This document shows, one piece after another, positions 50,440 to 61,537 of a stretch of 64,000 nt of DNA. Under the pieces are notes generated by a model. That model was given only the letters and a program-made list of their open reading frames with translations. It made no database searches and was not told the DNA's origin. The first letter of the stretch is position 1. The number at the start of each line of letters is the position of its first letter. This DNA is from Escherichia phage vB_EcoM-UFV13. A program made the translations under genes and the position numbers. Location of the stretch: sequence record NC_031103.1. One strand, 5' to 3'.

Positions 50440-53400
50440 ATGGCCGAGATTAAAAGAAAGTTCAGAGCAGAAGATGGTCTGGACGCAGGTGGTGATAAAA
50501 TAATCAACGTAGCTTTAGCTGATCGTACCGTAGGAACTGACGGTGTTAACGTTGATTATCTAATTCAAGAAAACACAGTTCAACAATATGATCCAACTCG
50601 TGGATATTTAAAAGATTTTGTAATCATTTATGATAACCGCTTTTGGGCTGCTATAAATGATATTCCAAAACCAGCAGGAGCTTTTAATAGCGGACGCTGG
50701 AGAGCATTACGTACCGATGCTAACTGGATTACGGTTTCATCTGGTTCATATCAATTAAAATCCGGTGAAGCAATTTCGGTTAACACTGCAGCTGGTAATG
50801 ATATTACATTTACTTTACCATCTACCCCAATTGATGGTGATACTATCGTTCTCCAAGATATTGGAGGAAAACCTGGAGTTAACCAAGTTTTAATTGTAGC
50901 TCCGGTGCAAAGTATTGTAAACTTCAGAGGTCAACAAGTACGTTCAGTACTAATGACTCATCCAAAGTCACAGCTAGTTTTAATTTTTAGTAATCGTCTG
51001 TGGCAAATGTATGTTGCTGATTATAGTAGAGAAGCTGTAGTTGTAACACCAGCGAATACTTATCAAGCACAGTCTAACGATTTTATCGTACGTAGATTTA
51101 CTTCTGCTGCACCAATTAATATTAAACTTCCGAGATTTGCTAATCACGGAGATATTATTAATTTCGTTGATTTGGATAAATTAAATCCACTTTATCATAC
51201 AATTGTTACTACATACGATGAAACTACTTCAATACAAGAAGATGGAACTCATTCTATTGAAGGCCGTACATCGATTGACGGTTTCTTGATGTTTGATGAT
51301 AATGAGAAATTGTGGAGATTGTTTGACGGAGACAGTAAAGCACGTTTACGTATCATAACGACTAATTCAAACATTCGTCCAAATGAAGAAGTTATGGTAT
51401 TTGGTGCGAATAACGGAACAACTCAAACAATTGAGCTTCAGCTTCCAACTAATATTTCTGTTGGTGATACTGTTAAAATTTCCATGAATTACATGAGAAA
51501 AGGACAAACAGTTAAAATCAAAGCTGCCGGTGAAGATAAAATTGCTTCTTCAGTTCAATTGCTGCAATTCCCAAAACGCTCAGAATATCCGCCTGAAGCT
51601 GAATGGGTTACAGTTCAAGAATTAGTTTTTAATGGTGAAACTAATTATGTTCCAGTTTTAGAGCTTGCTTATATAGAAGATTCTGATGGAAAATACTGGG
51701 TTGTACAGCAAAACGTTCCAACTGTAGAAAGAGTTGATTCTTTAAATGATTCTACTAGAGCAAGATTAGGCGTAATTGCTTTAGCTACACAAGCTCAAGC
51801 TAATGTCGATTTAGAAAATTCTCCACAAAAAGAATTAGCAATTACTCCAGAAACGTTAGCTAATCGTACTGCTACAGAAACTCGTAGAGGTATCGCAAGA
51901 ATAGCAACTACTGCTCAAGTGAATCAGAACTCCACATTCTCTTTTGCTGATGATATTATCATCACTCCTAAAAAGCTGAATGAAAGAACTGCTACAGAAA
52001 CTCGTAGAGGCGTTGCTGAAATTGCTACGCAACAGGAAACTAATGCAGGTACTGATGACACTACAATCATCACTCCTAAAAAGCTTCAAGCTCGTCAAGG
52101 TTCTGAATCATTATCTGGTATTGTAACTTTTGTATCTACTGCAGGTGCTACTCCAGCTTCTAGCCGTGAATTAAATGGTACCAACGTTTATAATAAAAAC
52201 ACTAATAATTTAGTTGTTTCACCTAAAGCTTTGGATCAGTATAAAGCTACGCCTACTCAACAGGGTGCAGTAATTTTAGCAGTTGAAAGTGAAGTAATTG
52301 CTGGACAAAGTCAGCAAGGATGGGCAAATGCTGTTGTAACTCCAGAAACGTTACACAAAAAGACATCAACTGATGGAAGAATTGGTTTAATTGAAATTGC
52401 TACGCAAAGTGAAGTTAATACAGGAACTGATTATACTCGTGCAGTCACTCCTAAAACTTTAAATGACCGTAGAGCAACTGAAAGTTTAAGTGGTATAGCT
52501 GAAATTGCTACACAAGTTGAATTCGACGCAGGCGTCGACGATACTCGTATCTCTACACCATTAAAAATTAAAACCAGATTTAATAGTACTGATCGTACTT
52601 CTGTTGTTGCTCTATCTGGATTAGTTGAATCAGGAACTCTCTGGGACCATTATACCCTTAATATTCTTGAAGCAAATGAGACACAGCGTGGTACACTTCG
52701 TGTAGCTACACAAGTTGAAGCTGCTGCAGGAAAATTAGATAATGTTTTAATAACTCCTAAAAAGCTTTTAGGTACTAAATCTACCGAATCGCAAGAAGGT
52801 GTTATTAAAGTTGCAACTCAGTCTGAAACTGTGGCTGGAACGTCAGCAAATACTGCTGTATCTCCAAAAAATTTAAAATGGATTGTGCAGAGTGAACCTA
52901 CCTGGGCAGCTACTACTGCGATAAGAGGTTTTGTTAAAACTTCATCTGGTTCAATTACATTCGTTGGTAATGATACAGTCGGTTCTACCCAAGATTTAGA
53001 ACTGTATGAGAAAAATAGCTATGCGGTATCACCATATGAATTAAACCGTGTATTAGCAAATTATTTGCCGTTAAAAGCAAAAGCTGCTGATACAAATTTA
53101 TTAGATGGTCTAGATTCATCTCAGTTCATTCGTAGGGATATTGCACAGACGGTTAATGGTTCACTAACCTTAGCCCAACAAACGAATCTGAGTGCCCCTC
53201 TTGTATCATCTAGTACTGCTACGTTTGGTGGTTCAGTTTCGGCAAATAGTACATTAACTATTTCTAATACTGGAACGGCAACTCGTCTGATTTTTGAGAA
53301 AGGACCTCAGACTGGAACTAACCCAGCACAGACGATGACTATCAGAGTTTGGGGAAATCAGTTTGGCGGCGGATCAGATACAACGCGTTCTACTGTATTT

Positions 53401-54309
53401 GAAGTTGGTGATGAAACATCTAATCACTTTTATTCTCAACGTAATAAAGCTGGGAATATAACGTTTAGTATCAATGGTACTGTGATGCCAATAAATGTTA
53501 ACGCTTCAGGCACGTTAAATGCGAATGGCGTTGCAACATTTGGTCGTTCAGTTACAGCCAATGGTGAATTCATTAGCAAGTCTGCAAATGCTTTCAGAGC
53601 AATTAGTGGTGATTACGGATTCTTTATTCGTAATGATGGCGGCAGCACATATTTTATGCTCACTGCATCCGGTGATCAGACTGGCGGATTTAATGGATTA
53701 CGTCCTTTGGCTATTAATAATGCATCTGGCCAAGTAACGATTGGTGAAGGCTTAATCATTGCCAAAGGTGCTACTATAAATTCAGGTGGTTTGACTGTTA
53801 ACTCGAGAATTCGTTCTCAGGGCAATAAAACATCTGATTTATATACTCGTGCTCCTACTGCTGATACAGTCGGATTCTGGTCAATTGATATTAATGATTC
53901 AGCCACTTATAACCAGTTCCCGGGTTATTTTAAAATGGTTGAAAAAACTAATGAAGTGACTGGGCTTCCATACTTAGAACGTGGCGAAGAAGTTAAATCT
54001 CCTGGTACACTGACACAGTTTGGTAACACACTTGATTCGCTTTACCAAGATTGGATTACTTATCCAACAACTCCAGAAGCGCGTACCACTCGTTGGACCC
54101 GCACATGGCAGAAAACCAAAAACTCTTGGTCAAGTTTTGTTCAGGTATTTGACGGAGGTAACCCTCCTCAGCCGTCTGATATCGGTGCTTTACCATCTGA
54201 TAATGCTACAATGGGGAATCTTACTATTCGTGATTTCTTACGAATTGGTAATGTTCGCATTATTCCTGACCCAGTGAATAAAACGGTTAAATTTGAATGG
54301 GTTGAATAA
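50440..54309 (+). CDS. 34: Long tail fibre proximal subunit gp34
   Basis: 1289 aa as in T4 gp34; internal fibre repeat motifs. Confidence 0.95.
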   Translation: MAEIKRKFRAEDGLDAGGDKIINVALADRTVGTDGVNVDYLIQENTVQQYDPTRGYLKDFVIIYDNRFWAAINDIPKPAGAFNSGRWRALRTDANWITVSSGSYQLKSGEAISVNTAAGNDITFTLPSTPIDGDTIVLQDIGGKPGVNQVLIVAPVQSIVNFRGQQVRSVLMTHPKSQLVLIFSNRLWQMYVADYSREAVVVTPANTYQAQSNDFIVRRFTSAAPINIKLPRFANHGDIINFVDLDKLNPLYHTIVTTYDETTSIQEDGTHSIEGRTSIDGFLMFDDNEKLWRLFDGDSKARLRIITTNSNIRPNEEVMVFGANNGTTQTIELQLPTNISVGDTVKISMNYMRKGQTVKIKAAGEDKIASSVQLLQFPKRSEYPPEAEWVTVQELVFNGETNYVPVLELAYIEDSDGKYWVVQQNVPTVERVDSLNDSTRARLGVIALATQAQANVDLENSPQKELAITPETLANRTATETRRGIARIATTAQVNQNSTFSFADDIIITPKKLNERTATETRRGVAEIATQQETNAGTDDTTIITPKKLQARQGSESLSGIVTFVSTAGATPASSRELNGTNVYNKNTNNLVVSPKALDQYKATPTQQGAVILAVESEVIAGQSQQGWANAVVTPETLHKKTSTDGRIGLIEIATQSEVNTGTDYTRAVTPKTLNDRRATESLSGIAEIATQVEFDAGVDDTRISTPLKIKTRFNSTDRTSVVALSGLVESGTLWDHYTLNILEANETQRGTLRVATQVEAAAGKLDNVLITPKKLLGTKSTESQEGVIKVATQSETVAGTSANTAVSPKNLKWIVQSEPTWAATTAIRGFVKTSSGSITFVGNDTVGSTQDLELYEKNSYAVSPYELNRVLANYLPLKAKAADTNLLDGLDSSQFIRRDIAQTVNGSLTLAQQTNLSAPLVSSSTATFGGSVSANSTLTISNTGTATRLIFEKGPQTGTNPAQTMTIRVWGNQFGGGSDTTRSTVFEVGDETSNHFYSQRNKAGNITFSINGTVMPINVNASGTLNANGVATFGRSVTANGEFISKSANAFRAISGDYGFFIRNDGGSTYFMLTASGDQTGGFNGLRPLAINNASGQVTIGEGLIIAKGATINSGGLTVNSRIRSQGNKTSDLYTRAPTADTVGFWSIDINDSATYNQFPGYFKMVEKTNEVTGLPYLERGEEVKSPGTLTQFGNTLDSLYQDWITYPTTPEARTTRWTRTWQKTKNSWSSFVQVFDGGNPPQPSDIGALPSDNATMGNLTIRDFLRIGNVRIIPDPVNKTVKFEWVE

Positions 54310-54317
54310 GAGGTATT

Positions 54318-55433
54318 ATGGAAAAATTTATGGCAGAGTTTGGACAAGGATATGTCCAAACGCCATTTTTATCGGAAAGCAATTCAGTAAGATATAAAAT
54401 AAGCATAGCGGGTTCTTGCCAGCTTTCTACAGCAGGACCATACGTTAAATTTCAGGATAATCCTATCGGAAATCAAACATTTAGCGCAGGCCTTCATTTA
54501 AGAGTTTTTGACCCTTCCACCGGAGCATTAGTTGATAGTAAGTCATATGCTTTTTCTACTTCAAATGATACTACATCAGCTGCTTTTGTTAGTTTCATGA
54601 ATTCTTTGGCGAATAATAGACTTGTTGCTATATTAACTAACGGAAAGGTTAATTTTCCTCCTGAAGTAGTATCTTGGTTAAGAACCGCAGGAACGTCTGC
54701 TTTTCCATCTGATTCTATATTGTCAAGATTCGACGTATCATATGCTGCTTTTTATACTTCTTCTAAAAGAGCTATTGCATTAGAGCATGTTAAACTGAGT
54801 AATAGAAAAAGCACAGATGATTATCAAACTATTTTAGATGTAGTATTTGACAGTTTAGAAGATGTAGGAGCTACCGGGTTTCCAAGAAGAACGTATGAAA
54901 GCGTTGAGCAATTCATGTCAGCGGTTGGTGGAACTAATAATGAAATTGCGAGATTGCCAACTTCAGCTGCTATAAGTAAACTCTCTGATTATAATTTAAT
55001 TCCTGGTGATGTTCTTTATCTTAAAGCTCAGTTATATGCTGATGCTGATTTACTTGCGCTTGGAACTACAAATATATCTATCCGTTTTTATAATGCATCA
55101 AATGGATATATTTCTTCAACACAAGCTGAGTTCACCGGACAAGCTGGGTCTTGGGAATTAAAGGAAGACTATGTAGTTGTTCCAGAAAACGCTGTCGGAT
55201 TTACGATATATGCACAAAGAACTGCACAAGCCGGTCAAGGCGGCATGAGAAATTTAAGCTTTTCTGAAGTGTCAAGAAATGGAGGTATTTCGAAACCTGC
55301 TGAATTTGGCGTCAACGGCATTCGTGTTAATTATATCTGTGAATCTGCTTCACCTCCGGATATAATGGTACTTCCTACGCAAGCATCGTCTAAAACTGGT
55401 AAAGTGTTTGGGCAAGAATTTAGAGAAGTATAA
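54318..55433 (+). CDS. 35: Long tail fibre hinge protein gp35
   Basis: 371 aa; position. Confidence 0.9.
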   Translation: MEKFMAEFGQGYVQTPFLSESNSVRYKISIAGSCQLSTAGPYVKFQDNPIGNQTFSAGLHLRVFDPSTGALVDSKSYAFSTSNDTTSAAFVSFMNSLANNRLVAILTNGKVNFPPEVVSWLRTAGTSAFPSDSILSRFDVSYAAFYTSSKRAIALEHVKLSNRKSTDDYQTILDVVFDSLEDVGATGFPRRTYESVEQFMSAVGGTNNEIARLPTSAAISKLSDYNLIPGDVLYLKAQLYADADLLALGTTNISIRFYNASNGYISSTQAEFTGQAGSWELKEDYVVVPENAVGFTIYAQRTAQAGQGGMRNLSFSEVSRNGGISKPAEFGVNGIRVNYICESASPPDIMVLPTQASSKTGKVFGQEFREV

Positions 55434-55495: not shown

Positions 55496-56158
55496 ATGGC
55501 TGATTTAAAAGTAGGTTCAACAACTGGAGGCTCTGTCATTTGGCATCAAGGAAATTTTCCATTGAATCCAGCCGGTGACGATGTACTCTATAAATCATTT
55601 AAAATATATTCAGAATACAATAAACCACAAGCTGCTGATAACGATTTCGTTTCTAAAGCTAATGGTGGTACTTACGCCGCGACTGTTCGATTTAATGGAG
55701 GAGTACATGTTCCTACTATAGGTAGTAGTCAACAGTGTGGTGTTTATCCAGGTAACGGTGATGCAGCTACTTTTGCTATGGCAAATATTGACATCGTTTC
55801 GTGGAATGGTATTGGTTTTAAATCATCACAAGGTTCAGCAGACCGAACTGTTGTAATTAATGCACGTAATGGTGATATTAGTACAAAAGGCGTTGTGACA
55901 GCAGTAGGTCAAATAAGAAGTAATGCAGTTACTCCTATAGCAGCGAATGACCTTACTAGAAAGGACTATGTTGATGGAGCAATAAATACTGTTACAGCAA
56001 ATGCGAACTCTAGAGTGTTGCGTTCTGGCGATACTATGACAGGGAACTTAACCGCACCAAACTTTTTTTCGCAGAATCCTGCATCTCAACCTTCACATGT
56101 TCCACGATTTGACCAAATCGTAATTAAGGATTCTGTTCAAGATTTCGGCTATTATTAA
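55496..56158 (+). CDS. 36: Long tail fibre distal connector gp36
   Basis: 220 aa; position. Confidence 0.9.
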   Translation: MADLKVGSTTGGSVIWHQGNFPLNPAGDDVLYKSFKIYSEYNKPQAADNDFVSKANGGTYAATVRFNGGVHVPTIGSSQQCGVYPGNGDAATFAMANIDIVSWNGIGFKSSQGSADRTVVINARNGDISTKGVVTAVGQIRSNAVTPIAANDLTRKDYVDGAINTVTANANSRVLRSGDTMTGNLTAPNFFSQNPASQPSHVPRFDQIVIKDSVQDFGYY

Positions 56159-56166
56159 GAGGACTT

Positions 56167-59100
56167 ATGGCTACTTTAAAACAGATACAATTTAAAAGAA
56201 GCAAAACCGCAGGTGCACGTCCTGCTGCTTCAGTATTAGCCGAAGGTGAATTGGCTATAAACTTAAAAGATAGAACAATTTTTACTAAAGATGATTCGGG
56301 AAATATCATTGATCTAGGTATTGCTAAAGGCGGTCAAATTGATGGAAATGTGACTATCAATGGTCTTTTAAGATTAAATGGGGATTATACACAAACTGGT
56401 GGAATGACCGTAAATGGACCTATTGGTTCTACTGAAGGCGTATCCGCCTTAGTTTTTAGATCTATGCGAGGGTCATTTTACGCAAGAGCAACAAATGATA
56501 CTTCCAATGCCCATCTTTGGTTTGAAAATACAAATGGATCAGAGAGAGGTGTTTTATATTCAAAACCGCAGTCTGAAAATGAAGGCGTAATTACAATGCG
56601 CGTTCGTCAAGGAACCGCAGCAGGGGCTCAAAATTCAGAATTTCATTTCATTTCTACTGATGGCGGTATCTTCCAGGCACGCAAATTAACTGCTTTAACT
56701 TCTATTAGTACACCAACTATTAGTGTTAATTTAATTAATCACGATTCTAAAGCCTTTGGACAATATGATTCACAGTCATTAGTTCAGTATGTTTATCCTG
56801 GAACAGGTGAAACAAATGGCGTAAACTATCTTCGTAAAGTTCGTGCTAAATCAGGTGGTACAATTTATCATGAAATTTGTACAGCTCAGACTGGGCTGGC
56901 AGATGAAATGTCATGGTGGACTGGTAATACACCGTTATTTAAACTATACGGTATTCGTAACGACGGTAGAATGATTATCCGCAATAGCTTGGCCATTGGT
57001 ACTGTGACTGAAGGATACCCGTCAAGCGATTATGGAAATACCGGGGTAATGGGAGATAGGTATTTAGCTCTTGGCGATAATGCTTCTGGACTTAAATGGG
57101 TTCGTACTGGCGTTATTGACTTAATGGCTAACGGTATTTCTGCGGCGACTATTATTAATAATGGTATTAATAGTACTAAAAAATTGATGGTCGGTTATAG
57201 CCGCGATTCTGGTACTACATGGGATTTTCCAAATAACAACCAAGCAATGTTTACTGCGCGTACCGATATTGATGGTAATAATAACGGTGATGGGCAAACT
57301 CATATCGGTTATAACAGTAATTCTAAAATGTATCACTATTTCCGTGGTACAGGTCGTATGGCTGTTGGTATGTCCCAAGGTCTCCTTGTTGAACCAGGAA
57401 TTTTAGATATTAACACTGGTTCTAACAGAGTTGCTATTAGAGCAGATGGTACATTTGACTCAACCCAACGTATTTCTATGCGTACGGGCTTGTTTTTAAG
57501 CGGTGATGATAATACTAATGCTTTATTGTTTAAAGCGCCTTCCGGCGTAGATGGTACTAAACCCATTAGCTGGGCCGCAGGTACTCGTAACGGTCAGAAT
57601 AAAAATGACATTTCAATTAAAGTATGGGGTAATGCCTTTAACTCAGTTCCGGGTATTAGAGAAACTGTATTTGAAGTATATGATTCACAAGGTTATTATT
57701 TTTATTCACAACGCCAGCGCCCAGAAGGTTCTGAAACTGTTGGGCCTGTTGTAACTCAGTTCAGTGGTCAAGTTAATGCTAACGGCTCTATTAGCACTGC
57801 AGGAAATCTTAAAGTTGATGGTTTGAGTACTTTAAACGGTAATGTTACAATGAAGAACGGTTTGTTTGTTCAAGGTGGTTCTTCTATTACTGGACAAGTT
57901 AAAATCGGCGGAACAGCTGACGCATTAAGAATTTGGAATGCTGAATATGGTGCTATTTTCCGCCGTTCGGAAAGTAATCTTTATATTATCCCGACTCCTA
58001 AAGGTGCCGGAGAATCGGGCGGTATAAGTAATCTTAGACCATTGATAATAGAACTGAACACTGGTACAGTTAAAATGTCGCATGATGTTCATTTAGGAGA
58101 TTCTGGATCTGGTACAGGATTATTACAAGTAAGTAATAGTCTTAAAACTATTAAAATGATATGTCCAGTAACTATTAATGAACGCAATGCAGCGCTTACT
58201 TTAGATTCTCCTTCATCTTCTTCTGCTAATTATTTACAGGGTTCTAAAGCTGGAACTAGATCATGGTATGTTGGTCTTGGTGGCGCTGGAAATGATTTAT
58301 CGCTTTATAGCCAATCTTATGGACATGGTCTTGTTATAAGCGATAATTTCGTGTCAATCAGTAAACCTCTTAAAGTCGGAAATGCCCAATTAGGAACTGA
58401 CGGTAATATTACCAATGGTTCAGGAAACTTTGCCAACTTAAACACCACGTTAAATCGTAAAGTTAATTCTGGATTTATTACTTATGGAGCAACTGCTGGC
58501 TGGTATAAGTTTGCAACAGTAACAATGCCACAATCCACTTCTACGGTCTTCTTTAAAATAGCCGGTGGTTCTGGATTTAATAGCGGATTATTCACACAAT
58601 GCAATATTGCTGAAATTGTTTTACGTACTAGTAATGAAAGACCTGCTGACTTAAATGCTGTATTATATACAAGAACATCTGGACTGTATAGCGCAGCATT
58701 TAGAAATATTGCAGTTAACAATGTCTCTGGAAATACATATGACATTTATGTTTATGCCGGAACATATTGTAATCAACTAGCGTGTGAATGGTCATGTACC
58801 GAAAATGCTACTGTTAGCGTTATTGGTATTAACTCATCTACACAATCACCTGTAGATGCTCTTCCAGATACAGCAGTTAACGGTCAAGTTGCTAATGTTC
58901 TTAATAACTTGGTTGATCGTGGTAAAGCAAAACGTTATGTAGCAGAGTCGGAAATTGCTATTAATAACCAAACTGGTATTCGTATTACGAGTAATTCTGA
59001 TAGATCAGGTTCTAATTCCGTTTTATTTCGAAATGACGGTGGAAACTTCTATATTTTACTGACCGACAAAAACTCTTCGGACGGCGATAATAAAGCGACT

Positions 59101-60027
59101 GAAGGCGATTGGAATGGAAAACGACCGTTTTCCATTGATATGACTGCTGGTACTGTTCGTCTTGGCGAAAATACTTCTTTTGATAAAGATATTACTATTA
59201 ATGGAAACATTAATTCACGAGTTAAAGCTGCCGGACAATGGAGTGTTAGCTTTTCTGCTATTTCAGATGTGACTCGCGACAATTCTGCATTCTTAGCGAA
59301 TACGGGTGGCATTTCCAAGACAAGTCAAGCTTATTACCCGCTATTTTCTGGATACAGTTTTTTAACTGACGCGGGTTATCGACAATCGTTTGAATTTGGA
59401 TGGTTAGGTGTTTCTGGTACTTGGCGCCAAGGCATTATTCGCATGCGTGGTGACAACGCATCGGGGCAACAGGCTCGTTGGACTTTTGATATGGATGGAA
59501 CATTTTATGCTCCTATACTATCATGCGGATCTGCGAGAGCATTCGGTGTCAATACATCAAATGGTCTCGGTGGAAACAGTATAACATTTGGTGATAGCGA
59601 TACCGGTATTAAGCAAAATGGTGATGGATTATTAGACATATATGCGAACAACGCACAAGTATTCCGTTTCCAAAACGGCGATTTGTACTCATACAAAAAT
59701 ATAAATGCTCCAAACGTTTATATTCGTTCTGATATTCGTTTAAAATCCAACTTCAAACCTATCGAAAATGCACTTGATAAAGTTGAAAAACTTAACGGTG
59801 TCATTTACGATAAAGCTGAATACATCGGTGGAGAGGCAATTGAAACTGAAGCGGGTATTGTGGCTCAAACGTTGCAAGACGTTTTACCAGAAGCTGTCCG
59901 TGAAACAGAAGACAGTAAGGGTAATAAAATACTCACTGTTTCTTCTCAAGCCCAGATTGCTCTTCTAGTTGAAGCTGTGAAAACACTTTCTTCTCGTGTA
60001 AAAGAACTTGAATCTAAACTTATGTAA
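56167..60027 (+). CDS. 37: Long tail fibre distal subunit gp37 with C-terminal intramolecular chaperone (self-cleaving) domain; T2/T6-type
   Basis: 1286 aa (T4 gp37 is 1026 aa); N-terminus conserved with T4; C-terminal about 110 aa carries the SD-x-RLK autoproteolysis motif (RSDIRLKSN) and a coiled-coil tail. Confidence 0.9.
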   Translation: MATLKQIQFKRSKTAGARPAASVLAEGELAINLKDRTIFTKDDSGNIIDLGIAKGGQIDGNVTINGLLRLNGDYTQTGGMTVNGPIGSTEGVSALVFRSMRGSFYARATNDTSNAHLWFENTNGSERGVLYSKPQSENEGVITMRVRQGTAAGAQNSEFHFISTDGGIFQARKLTALTSISTPTISVNLINHDSKAFGQYDSQSLVQYVYPGTGETNGVNYLRKVRAKSGGTIYHEICTAQTGLADEMSWWTGNTPLFKLYGIRNDGRMIIRNSLAIGTVTEGYPSSDYGNTGVMGDRYLALGDNASGLKWVRTGVIDLMANGISAATIINNGINSTKKLMVGYSRDSGTTWDFPNNNQAMFTARTDIDGNNNGDGQTHIGYNSNSKMYHYFRGTGRMAVGMSQGLLVEPGILDINTGSNRVAIRADGTFDSTQRISMRTGLFLSGDDNTNALLFKAPSGVDGTKPISWAAGTRNGQNKNDISIKVWGNAFNSVPGIRETVFEVYDSQGYYFYSQRQRPEGSETVGPVVTQFSGQVNANGSISTAGNLKVDGLSTLNGNVTMKNGLFVQGGSSITGQVKIGGTADALRIWNAEYGAIFRRSESNLYIIPTPKGAGESGGISNLRPLIIELNTGTVKMSHDVHLGDSGSGTGLLQVSNSLKTIKMICPVTINERNAALTLDSPSSSSANYLQGSKAGTRSWYVGLGGAGNDLSLYSQSYGHGLVISDNFVSISKPLKVGNAQLGTDGNITNGSGNFANLNTTLNRKVNSGFITYGATAGWYKFATVTMPQSTSTVFFKIAGGSGFNSGLFTQCNIAEIVLRTSNERPADLNAVLYTRTSGLYSAAFRNIAVNNVSGNTYDIYVYAGTYCNQLACEWSCTENATVSVIGINSSTQSPVDALPDTAVNGQVANVLNNLVDRGKAKRYVAESEIAINNQTGIRITSNSDRSGSNSVLFRNDGGNFYILLTDKNSSDGDNKATEGDWNGKRPFSIDMTAGTVRLGENTSFDKDITINGNINSRVKAAGQWSVSFSAISDVTRDNSAFLANTGGISKTSQAYYPLFSGYSFLTDAGYRQSFEFGWLGVSGTWRQGIIRMRGDNASGQQARWTFDMDGTFYAPILSCGSARAFGVNTSNGLGGNSITFGDSDTGIKQNGDGLLDIYANNAQVFRFQNGDLYSYKNINAPNVYIRSDIRLKSNFKPIENALDKVEKLNGVIYDKAEYIGGEAIETEAGIVAQTLQDVLPEAVRETEDSKGNKILTVSSQAQIALLVEAVKTLSSRVKELESKLM

Positions 60028-60029
60028 AA

Positions 60030-60045
60030 GAGGGCTTCGGCCCTC
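60030..60045 (+). other. Stem-loop between genes 37 and 38 (GAGGGC-TTCG-GCCCTC)
   Basis: Perfect 6-bp GC stem with UUCG loop 3 nt after the gene 37 stop. Confidence 0.6.
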
Positions 60046-60057
60046 TAAGGATTTTTA

Positions 60058-60849
60058 ATGGCAATTGTAGGTGTTCCTGGCTGGATTGGCGAATCTGCCG
60101 TGAATGAAACTGGACAACGTTGGATGGATGCTGCGATGAAAGCTGTTCGTGTTTCAGTTCCCGGTTGGATGAGTTCAATGGCTGGGCAATCTAAAGAAGT
60201 ATATTATAGTGTTGGTGCTAGTAATTCTTATAATAAAGACACACTAATAAATTGGATAAAAGCTCAAGGAAGTACTCCTGTTGTTATTACTATTACAGGA
60301 AATATTGTTTCTCAATCTACTGGTGTTCCATGCTTAGATTTTCCTAGCTCATTAACTAATGCGTATGTTACCTTAAATATTAATAGCGGGGTTCATGTAT
60401 TAGGTCGGGGAGGAAATGGCGGAAGTAACTCTGCTGGTGGAGCAGGAGGAACTGCAATAAATAACGGAATTGGAACTCGTTTAAGAATAAACAATAATGG
60501 TATTATTGGTGGCGGTGGCGGTGGCGGCGCAGGTGCTAGATACAATCCTTTCCCTCAAATGGATATGAAATTTGGCGGCGGAGGAGGTCGTCCATTTGGT
60601 GCTGCCGGTGCAGCCGGTGGCGGCGCAGCGGCTGCATCTGCCGGTACAATTTCTGCTCCTGGTAAAGGCACTGTTTCTGGGGTTCACCATGGAGGAGATG
60701 GTGGAGATTTGGGAGCTGCTGGCAAATCTTCATATATTCAAGGTGGTACTGGAGGAACTGTTCACTCGGGTGGTGCTGCGGGTAAAGCTGTTACTGGTAA
60801 TGCTCCAACTTGGACTAAAGTTGGTACAATATATGGTGCAAGAGTATAA
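60058..60849 (+). CDS. 38: gp38 receptor-binding adhesin (glycine-rich-motif type, T2/T6-like)
   Basis: 263 aa (T4 gp38 chaperone is 183 aa); conserved N-terminal gp37-attachment region; C-terminal poly-Gly motifs (GGGGGGGAGA, GGGGRPFGAAGAAGGG) separated by variable segments. Confidence 0.85.
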   Translation: MAIVGVPGWIGESAVNETGQRWMDAAMKAVRVSVPGWMSSMAGQSKEVYYSVGASNSYNKDTLINWIKAQGSTPVVITITGNIVSQSTGVPCLDFPSSLTNAYVTLNINSGVHVLGRGGNGGSNSAGGAGGTAINNGIGTRLRINNNGIIGGGGGGGAGARYNPFPQMDMKFGGGGGRPFGAAGAAGGGAAAASAGTISAPGKGTVSGVHHGGDGGDLGAAGKSSYIQGGTGGTVHSGGAAGKAVTGNAPTWTKVGTIYGARV

Positions 60850-60880: not shown

Positions 60881-61537
60881 ATGGCAGCACCTAGAATATC
60901 ATTTTCGCCCTCTGATATTCTGTTGGGTGTTCTAGATCGCTTGTTCAAAGATAACGCTACCGGGAAAGTTCTTGCTTCCCGGGTAGCTGTCGTAATTCTT
61001 TTGTTTATAATGGCGATTGTTTGGTATAGGGGAGATAGTTTCTTTGAGTACTATAAGCAATCAAAGTATGAAACATACAGTGAAATTATTGAAAAGGAAA
61101 GAAATGCACGCTTTGAATCTGTCGCCCTGGAACAACTCCAGATAGTTCATATATCATCTGAGGCAGACTTTAGTGCGGTGTATTCTTTCCGCCCTAAAAA
61201 CTTAAACTATTTTGTTGATATTATAGCATATGAAGGAAAATTACCTTCAACAATAAGTGAAAAATCACTTGGAGGATATCCTGTTGATAAAACTATGGAT
61301 GAATATACAGTTCATTTAAATGGACGTCATTATTATTCCAACTCAAAATTTGCTTTTTTACCAACTAAAAAGCCTACTCCCGAAATAAACTACATGTACA
61401 GTTGTCCATATTTTAATTTGGATAATATCTATGCTGGAACGATAACCATGTACTGGTATAGAAATGATCATATAAGTAATGACCGCCTTGAATCAATATG
61501 TGCTCAGGCGGCCAGAATATTAGGAAGGGCTAAATAA
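60881..61537 (+). CDS. t: Holin T
   Basis: 218 aa as in T4 holin; single N-terminal TM (VVILLFIMAIVWY) and large periplasmic domain. Confidence 0.93.
   Translation: MAAPRISFSPSDILLGVLDRLFKDNATGKVLASRVAVVILLFIMAIVWYRGDSFFEYYKQSKYETYSEIIEKERNARFESVALEQLQIVHISSEADFSAVYSFRPKNLNYFVDIIAYEGKLPSTISEKSLGGYPVDKTMDEYTVHLNGRHYYSNSKFAFLPTKKPTPEINYMYSCPYFNLDNIYAGTITMYWYRNDHISNDRLESICAQAARILGRAK

Follow-up and report, generated by a model that had tools for sequence, protein, structure and literature searches.

The C-terminal 99 residues of gp37, the long tail fibre distal subunit precursor encoded in the 64,000-nucleotide stretch analysed (the window), almost certainly form a folding-helper domain that is released by self-cleavage once the fibre is trimeric. 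Residues S1188–M1286 (59,728–60,024, plus strand), at the extreme C-terminus of the 1286-residue protein, were assigned to the Peptidase_S74 C-terminal intramolecular chaperones (IMCs). Under this reading, to which we give a probability of about 0.93, gp37 would trimerise, release the domain by self-cleavage and be capped by gp38. The present analysis established the domain with its catalytic residues and fold and showed that it nearly matches its T2 counterpart; cleavage, its mechanism and gp38 capping come from the literature on relatives. From both we infer in what order the steps occur and that the gp37 studied here behaves identically.

The chaperone domain of gp37

Gene 37 occupies positions 56,167–60,027 of the plus strand and encodes 1286 residues plus a stop codon in the open reading frame listing. 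The initial annotation had contrasted this length with the 1026 residues of T4 gp37, and both figures were confirmed; the 99-residue domain accounts for only part of the 260-residue excess. It had also placed the chaperone within the last 110 residues or so. The interval concerned, which starts at position 59,700 within codon 1178, does span the last 109 residues, but the domain itself, counted from the predicted scissile serine, is 99 residues long. The peptide quoted there, NINAPNVYIRSDIRLKSNFKPIENALDKVEKLNGVIYD, corresponds to residues 1178–1215 (59,698–59,811).

Downstream of gp37_trimer and Gp34_trimer fibre domains, the Pfam profile PF13884 (Peptidase_S74, "chaperone of endosialidase") was matched over its entire length (1–58 of 58) by residues 1188–1245 (59,728–59,901, plus strand), with an E-value of 3.6e-15 and a score of 56.4 bits, where the curated cutoff is 22 bits. 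The start of the profile coincides with S1188-D-I-R-L-K1193 (59,728–59,745, plus strand), the predicted Ser–Lys catalytic dyad motif; no other SDxRxK occurs in the window, whichever of the six frames is read. In an alignment of 39–40 homologues (28–85% identity), residues S1188, D1189, K1193, A1233, Q1234, L1240 and P1241 are invariant. The domain thus opens with a serine followed by a lysine five residues downstream, and this pair is equivalent to S587/K592 of MyRF, S911/K916 of endoNF and S1264/K1269 of T5. The serine further aligns with the cleavage-site serine of S16, with that of GA-1 and with the residue mutated in the S587A variant of MyRF. The S-D-x-R-L-K signature proposed from the first reading of the DNA therefore stands, with its serine and lysine invariant and aligned with known dyads.

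Searches against the PDB led to solved relatives. With the single sequence as query, the S16 gp37 chain of the gp37–gp38 complex 6f45 (E 2.4e-13) and the MyRF ICA 7dc3 were retrieved; the homologue profile matched 6f45 (4.6e-20), the tail fibre 8jov (3.7e-14), 7dc3 (6e-13) and the GA-1 chaperone 3gud (4.5e-5). The IMC domain was present in 1651 phage records of the collection searched, and the gene beneath most of the matches listed bore the annotation long tail fibre distal subunit.

A model of residues 1144–1286 (143 residues) was computed as a monomer with AlphaFold from the alignment and reached a mean pLDDT of 90.3. Beyond the serine, a short helix leads into a beta-hairpin and a second helix into another short hairpin, and the chain closes with a terminal helix of 26 residues. 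This amphipathic helix (residues 1260–1285; 59,944–60,021, plus strand; model residues 117–142) has a local pLDDT of 92–97. Its hydrophobic core, as read from the sequence, consists of I1264, L1267, V1271, L1274, V1278, L1281 and L1285, in a 3-4-3-4-3-4 spacing with leucine at alternate core positions. These features support a predicted trimeric coiled coil, matching the triple coiled coil formed by the equivalent helix of MyRF (PMC8326128) and T5 (PMC4690869), and they give substance to the coiled-coil tail postulated earlier. The first Foldseek matches in the PDB were the MyRF ICA (7dc3), the endoNF chaperone (3gw6) and the GA-1 chaperone (3gud), and IMC structures alone occupied the top of the fold searches, so that the predicted fold is that of solved chaperone domains. 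Assignment to the Peptidase_S74 chaperone family, as the initial annotation had it, was accordingly borne out by the full-length Pfam match, by profile matches to solved structures and by the predicted fold.

That the resemblance might be a chance motif match in a compositionally repetitive fibre protein was considered in view of weak matches to influenza HA2 (E 0.01–0.2), which appeared when a 176-residue query containing the pre-cleavage segment was searched against the PDB. These matches align to that segment and were rejected as spurious, and they vanished when the 99-residue domain alone was used as query; none was found in the fold searches. Together with the Pfam match over the full profile, the profile matches to four solved relatives and a fold search headed by IMC structures only, this leaves coincidence with a vanishingly small probability, and we regard it as already refuted. 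No sequence evidence opposing the chaperone reading was found in gp37.

One database entry retrieved was anomalous. A 176-residue metagenomic protein from an 885-nucleotide ENA contig (P0015) matches part of the query at 96% identity (33% coverage), yet its precomputed Pfam match is PF01594 in place of PF13884, and the entry probably represents a chimera produced by assembly or gene calling.

Predicted cleavage site and distal tip

The predicted scissile bond, Arg1187|Ser1188 (59,725–59,730, plus strand), was positioned by alignment with S16, with the related Yersinia phages (fPS) and with the start of 3gud. In PMC7917993, the S16 sequence DLNVS^SDRRIKK and the fPS sequence DVYIR^SDGRLKI are aligned at the cleaved bond (^), and the latter is nearly the same as the gp37 site R^SDIRLKS. 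The chain of 3gud, which is the chaperone freed from the GA-1 neck appendage, begins exactly at the aligned serine. Upstream of the bond, residues 1125–1187 (59,539–59,727, plus strand) would constitute the distal tip of the mature fibre; they are almost identical to T2 and homologous to the docking tip of S16. In endoNF and T5, an upstream arginine of the neighbouring chain (R897 and R1250, respectively) acts as folding sensor and forms the oxyanion hole. Its counterpart in gp37 was not mappable by sequence, and R1167 and R1187 are the candidates.

The S16 tip complex, PDB 6F45 (Dunne et al. 2018), also bears on the fate of the domain. Its gp37 construct has 204 residues, yet the solved chains hold only 68–72, consistent with chaperone loss. 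If the domain instead stayed on the virion fibre to hold the trimer together permanently, with gp38 bound elsewhere, this structure would not be expected to lack it. The catalytic residues of gp37 are intact, and 98 of the 99 residues of the domain are identical in T2, for which, as for T6, Trojet 2011 (PMC3157838, citing Drexler 1986) reports C-terminal cleavage of gp37 followed by capping with gp38. No support for retention was found, and we consider it very improbable.

The tip contains a motif, …SDTGIKQNGDGLLDIYANNAQ… (59,596–59,700; gp37 residues 1144–1178), that recurs in other settings. It is 56–77% identical to short fragments annotated as "phage tail protein" in genomes of Salmonella enterica that have no S74 domain (P0041–P0057), and 58% identical to the tail fibre of phage P1 (H65). 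Such a distribution suggests that this fibre-tip module is exchanged widely and independently of the chaperone domain.

Proposed processing and comparison with relatives

By analogy with these relatives, the C-terminal helices would associate into a parallel three-helix coiled coil and thereby hold three nascent gp37 chains in register. The small alpha/beta part of the domain would pack beneath the fibre tip, and folding of the trimer would be nucleated from the C-terminal end. Once the trimer is correctly folded, Lys1193 would activate Ser1188 as a Ser–Lys dyad, and the Arg1187–Ser1188 bond would be cut in each chain. The chaperone trimer, with 99 residues per chain, would depart, leaving a mature gp37 of residues 1–1187 that presents a new distal face, and the gp38 adhesin is predicted to cap this processed tip.

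Relatives supply the mechanism. In T5 pb1, auto-proteolysis is abolished by the S1264A mutation, Lys1269 is proposed to activate Ser1264, whose hydroxyl is close by, and the receptor-binding tip is unmasked when the domain is removed (PMC4690869). Neither the S587A nor the K592A variant of MyRF shows any cleavage, which requires the trimer, and S587/K592 were equated with the Ser–Lys dyad S911/K916 of endoNF (PMC8326128). For S16, PMC7917993 describes autocleavage of a 113-residue C-terminal segment of gp37 once the protein has trimerised, whereby the docking surface for gp38 becomes exposed. From that account of the S16 structure, we infer that cleavage comes first and gp38 binding second; we keep this order conditional because PMC8309999 words the role of T2-type gp38 as "helping gp37 trimerisation", after which it stays on the tip.

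That wording is also one of two points in favour of an alternative in which the chaperone is genuine and is removed, but cleavage needs gp38, gp57A or another protease in trans and gp38 engages before or during processing. The other is that functional T2-type and S16 fibres are usually made by co-expression with gp38 and gp57A. The serine and lysine of the self-cleaving dyad, however, are invariant in the gp37 homologues. Moreover, T5 pb1 (PMC4690869) and MyRF (PMC8326128) need no co-expressed partner to cleave themselves in E. coli, and the S16 docking surface is described in PMC7917993 as exposed only after IMC release. We therefore judge cleavage in trans to be unlikely and prefer self-cleavage before gp38 capping.

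Among the known systems, the S16 gp37–gp38 pair (PDB 6F45) shares the overall layout of a fibre tip, a scissile serine and an IMC, followed by a glycine-rich gp38 adhesin. It differs in the length of the IMC (113 residues versus 99), in the residue preceding the serine (Ser instead of Arg) and in an identity of about 30%. The endoNF chaperone of phage K1F (PDB 3GW6) is more distant, with chains of 252–257 residues and 13–17% identity, and it follows a tailspike stalk, whereas the domain described here follows a T-even fibre. IMCs of the endoNF group carry extended "tentacles" (PMC9608196). In T5, a 133-residue domain embraces the tip with 50-Å beta-hairpin tentacles, whereas the present model has two short hairpins within 99 residues; the unmasked T5 tip itself binds the receptor, whereas the partner predicted for the gp37 tip is a separate adhesin. 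In size and shape, the compact 99-residue domain most resembles the MyRF ICA (7DC3) and the GA-1 neck appendage chaperone (3GUD), although MyRF belongs to the membrane-bound transcription factors of eukaryotes, GA-1 provides a podovirus appendage, and neither is followed by an adhesin.

A self-cleaving chaperone tail is the textbook arrangement of T2 and its relatives and is already known for T2 and S16. C-terminal processing of T2 gp37 was reportedly described by Drexler et al. in 1986. The self-cleaving chaperone mechanism was worked out later in endosialidases, T5, S16 and MyRF. The value of the assignment lies mainly in correct annotation and fibre engineering, and it opens no new question. 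For annotation, virion gp37 should be taken as residues 1–1187, with the true distal end for gp38 docking predicted to be the ...NVYIR terminus. Constructs for recombinant fibres or host-range swaps must retain the 99-residue chaperone domain for folding.

The fibre locus and its T2-type tip

The window is a Tequatrovirus (T-even) segment; across 24 kb it shares about 96% identity with Shigella phage Shfl2 and its relatives. Its long tail fibre genes follow the canonical order 34-35-36-37-38-t, which is the same in T4, T2 and T6. In the open reading frame listing, gene 34 (50,440–54,309), gene 35 (54,318–55,433) and gene 36 (55,496–56,158) precede gene 37, and gene t, encoding the holin, lies at 60,881–61,537. 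Gene 38 (60,058–60,849, plus strand) encodes an adhesin of 263 residues. Megablast matches of gene 37 lay in Tequatrovirus genomes and carried the annotation long tail fibre distal subunit, and no record in the phage collection searched exceeded 92.5% identity over 90% of the gp37–gp38 region. Two open reading frames overlapping gene 37 (59,505–59,696, minus strand, and 59,768–59,968, plus strand) were rejected, as they are short, unsupported and contained within this strongly supported gene. Records of the Kha5h phage carry an "attP; prophage attachment site" feature beneath the match to genes 37-38-t, which is odd in a virulent T-even phage and probably reflects an artefact of automatic annotation.

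The gp38 product is a T2/T6-type glycine-rich adhesin with an N-terminal attachment domain (Pfam GP38, E 1.2e-68; Gp38_N, E 7.3e-18). It aligns over its full length, glycine-rich motifs included, with gp38 of T2 and T6, and its first 26 residues are identical to those of T2. Combined with the C-terminal cleavable segment predicted on gp37 and the gene order, this identifies a tip of the T2/T6 type. In the T4 type, gp37 itself is the adhesin and gp38 a non-structural chaperone, an arrangement to which the present gp37 does not conform. The 1026-residue T4 gp37 has Collar and Phage_fiber needle domains (PF07484, PF03335) and no PF13884 match, the reverse of what was found here; its gp38 is unrelated to the one described, and the last 285 or so residues of gp37, from residue 1001, have essentially no T4 counterpart. 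The contention that the tip is of T2 and not of T4 type was therefore upheld by gp38, by the T4 gp37 devoid of S74 and by the T2-like IMC.

PF13884 is found at the C-terminus of gp37 from both T2 and T6. In T2 (AP018813; gp37 of 1341 residues), the IMC (T2 S1243–M1341) is identical at 98 of 99 residues and at 296 of 300 nucleotides, and the 63 pre-cleavage residues (1125–1187), the intercistronic hairpin and the N-terminus of gp38 are also nearly or fully identical. The present gp37 is 55 residues shorter than that of T2, and its remainder is only 31–70% identical to T2 per 100-residue bin. With a near-identical tip and IMC on an otherwise diverged protein, the shaft is a different mosaic that carries the T2 tip cassette. 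Along the chain, the N-terminal 100 residues share 89% identity with T4, the middle no more than about 30–50% with T2, T4 or T6, and identity to T2 rises to 85% in the bin from residue 1101 and to 99% in that from residue 1201.

The T6 gp37 is shorter (994 residues), and its chaperone domain is 41% identical over the last 86 residues. An extra 17-residue tail, TPFFTKIARKISNYFKF, follows its coiled-coil helix (AP018814, locus L004, 13640–13687) and is absent from the T2 type and from the gp37 studied here. A 1998 T6 record of genes 36–38 (AF052605, locus L002), which contains an ambiguous residue (X), reads SDSRLN, with asparagine for the catalytic lysine. A naturally inactive T6 chaperone was rejected, however, since the complete T6 genome (AP018814, L004, 13262–13690) has SDSRLK and a PF13884 match; the earlier reading is most likely an old sequencing error.

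A T2-identical cassette of tip, IMC, hairpin and gp38 N-terminus on a shaft that is 31–70% identical fits cassette exchange, which has already been described for T-even fibres (PMC3157838). The released chaperone trimer might conceivably have a further role, for instance as a timer of gp38 loading or as a conserved homology anchor for exchange of the tip-plus-adhesin cassette, or else cleavage might be gated by gp38 or gp57A; we give these extensions, taken together, only slim odds.

The hairpin shared with T2 begins two bases past the stop codon of gene 37 (60,029–60,046, plus strand). This GC-rich element, AGAGGGC-UUCG-GCCCUCU, has a 7-bp stem and a UUCG tetraloop, with a folding energy of -13.4 kcal/mol and a z-score of -2.3. 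It is directly followed by AAGGATTTTTAATG, which likely comprises the ribosome-binding site and the start of gene 38. The 36-nucleotide intergenic stretch is identical in T2 (hairpin at L003, 14055–14072), and the hairpin could have a stabilising or an attenuating function at the junction of genes 37 and 38.
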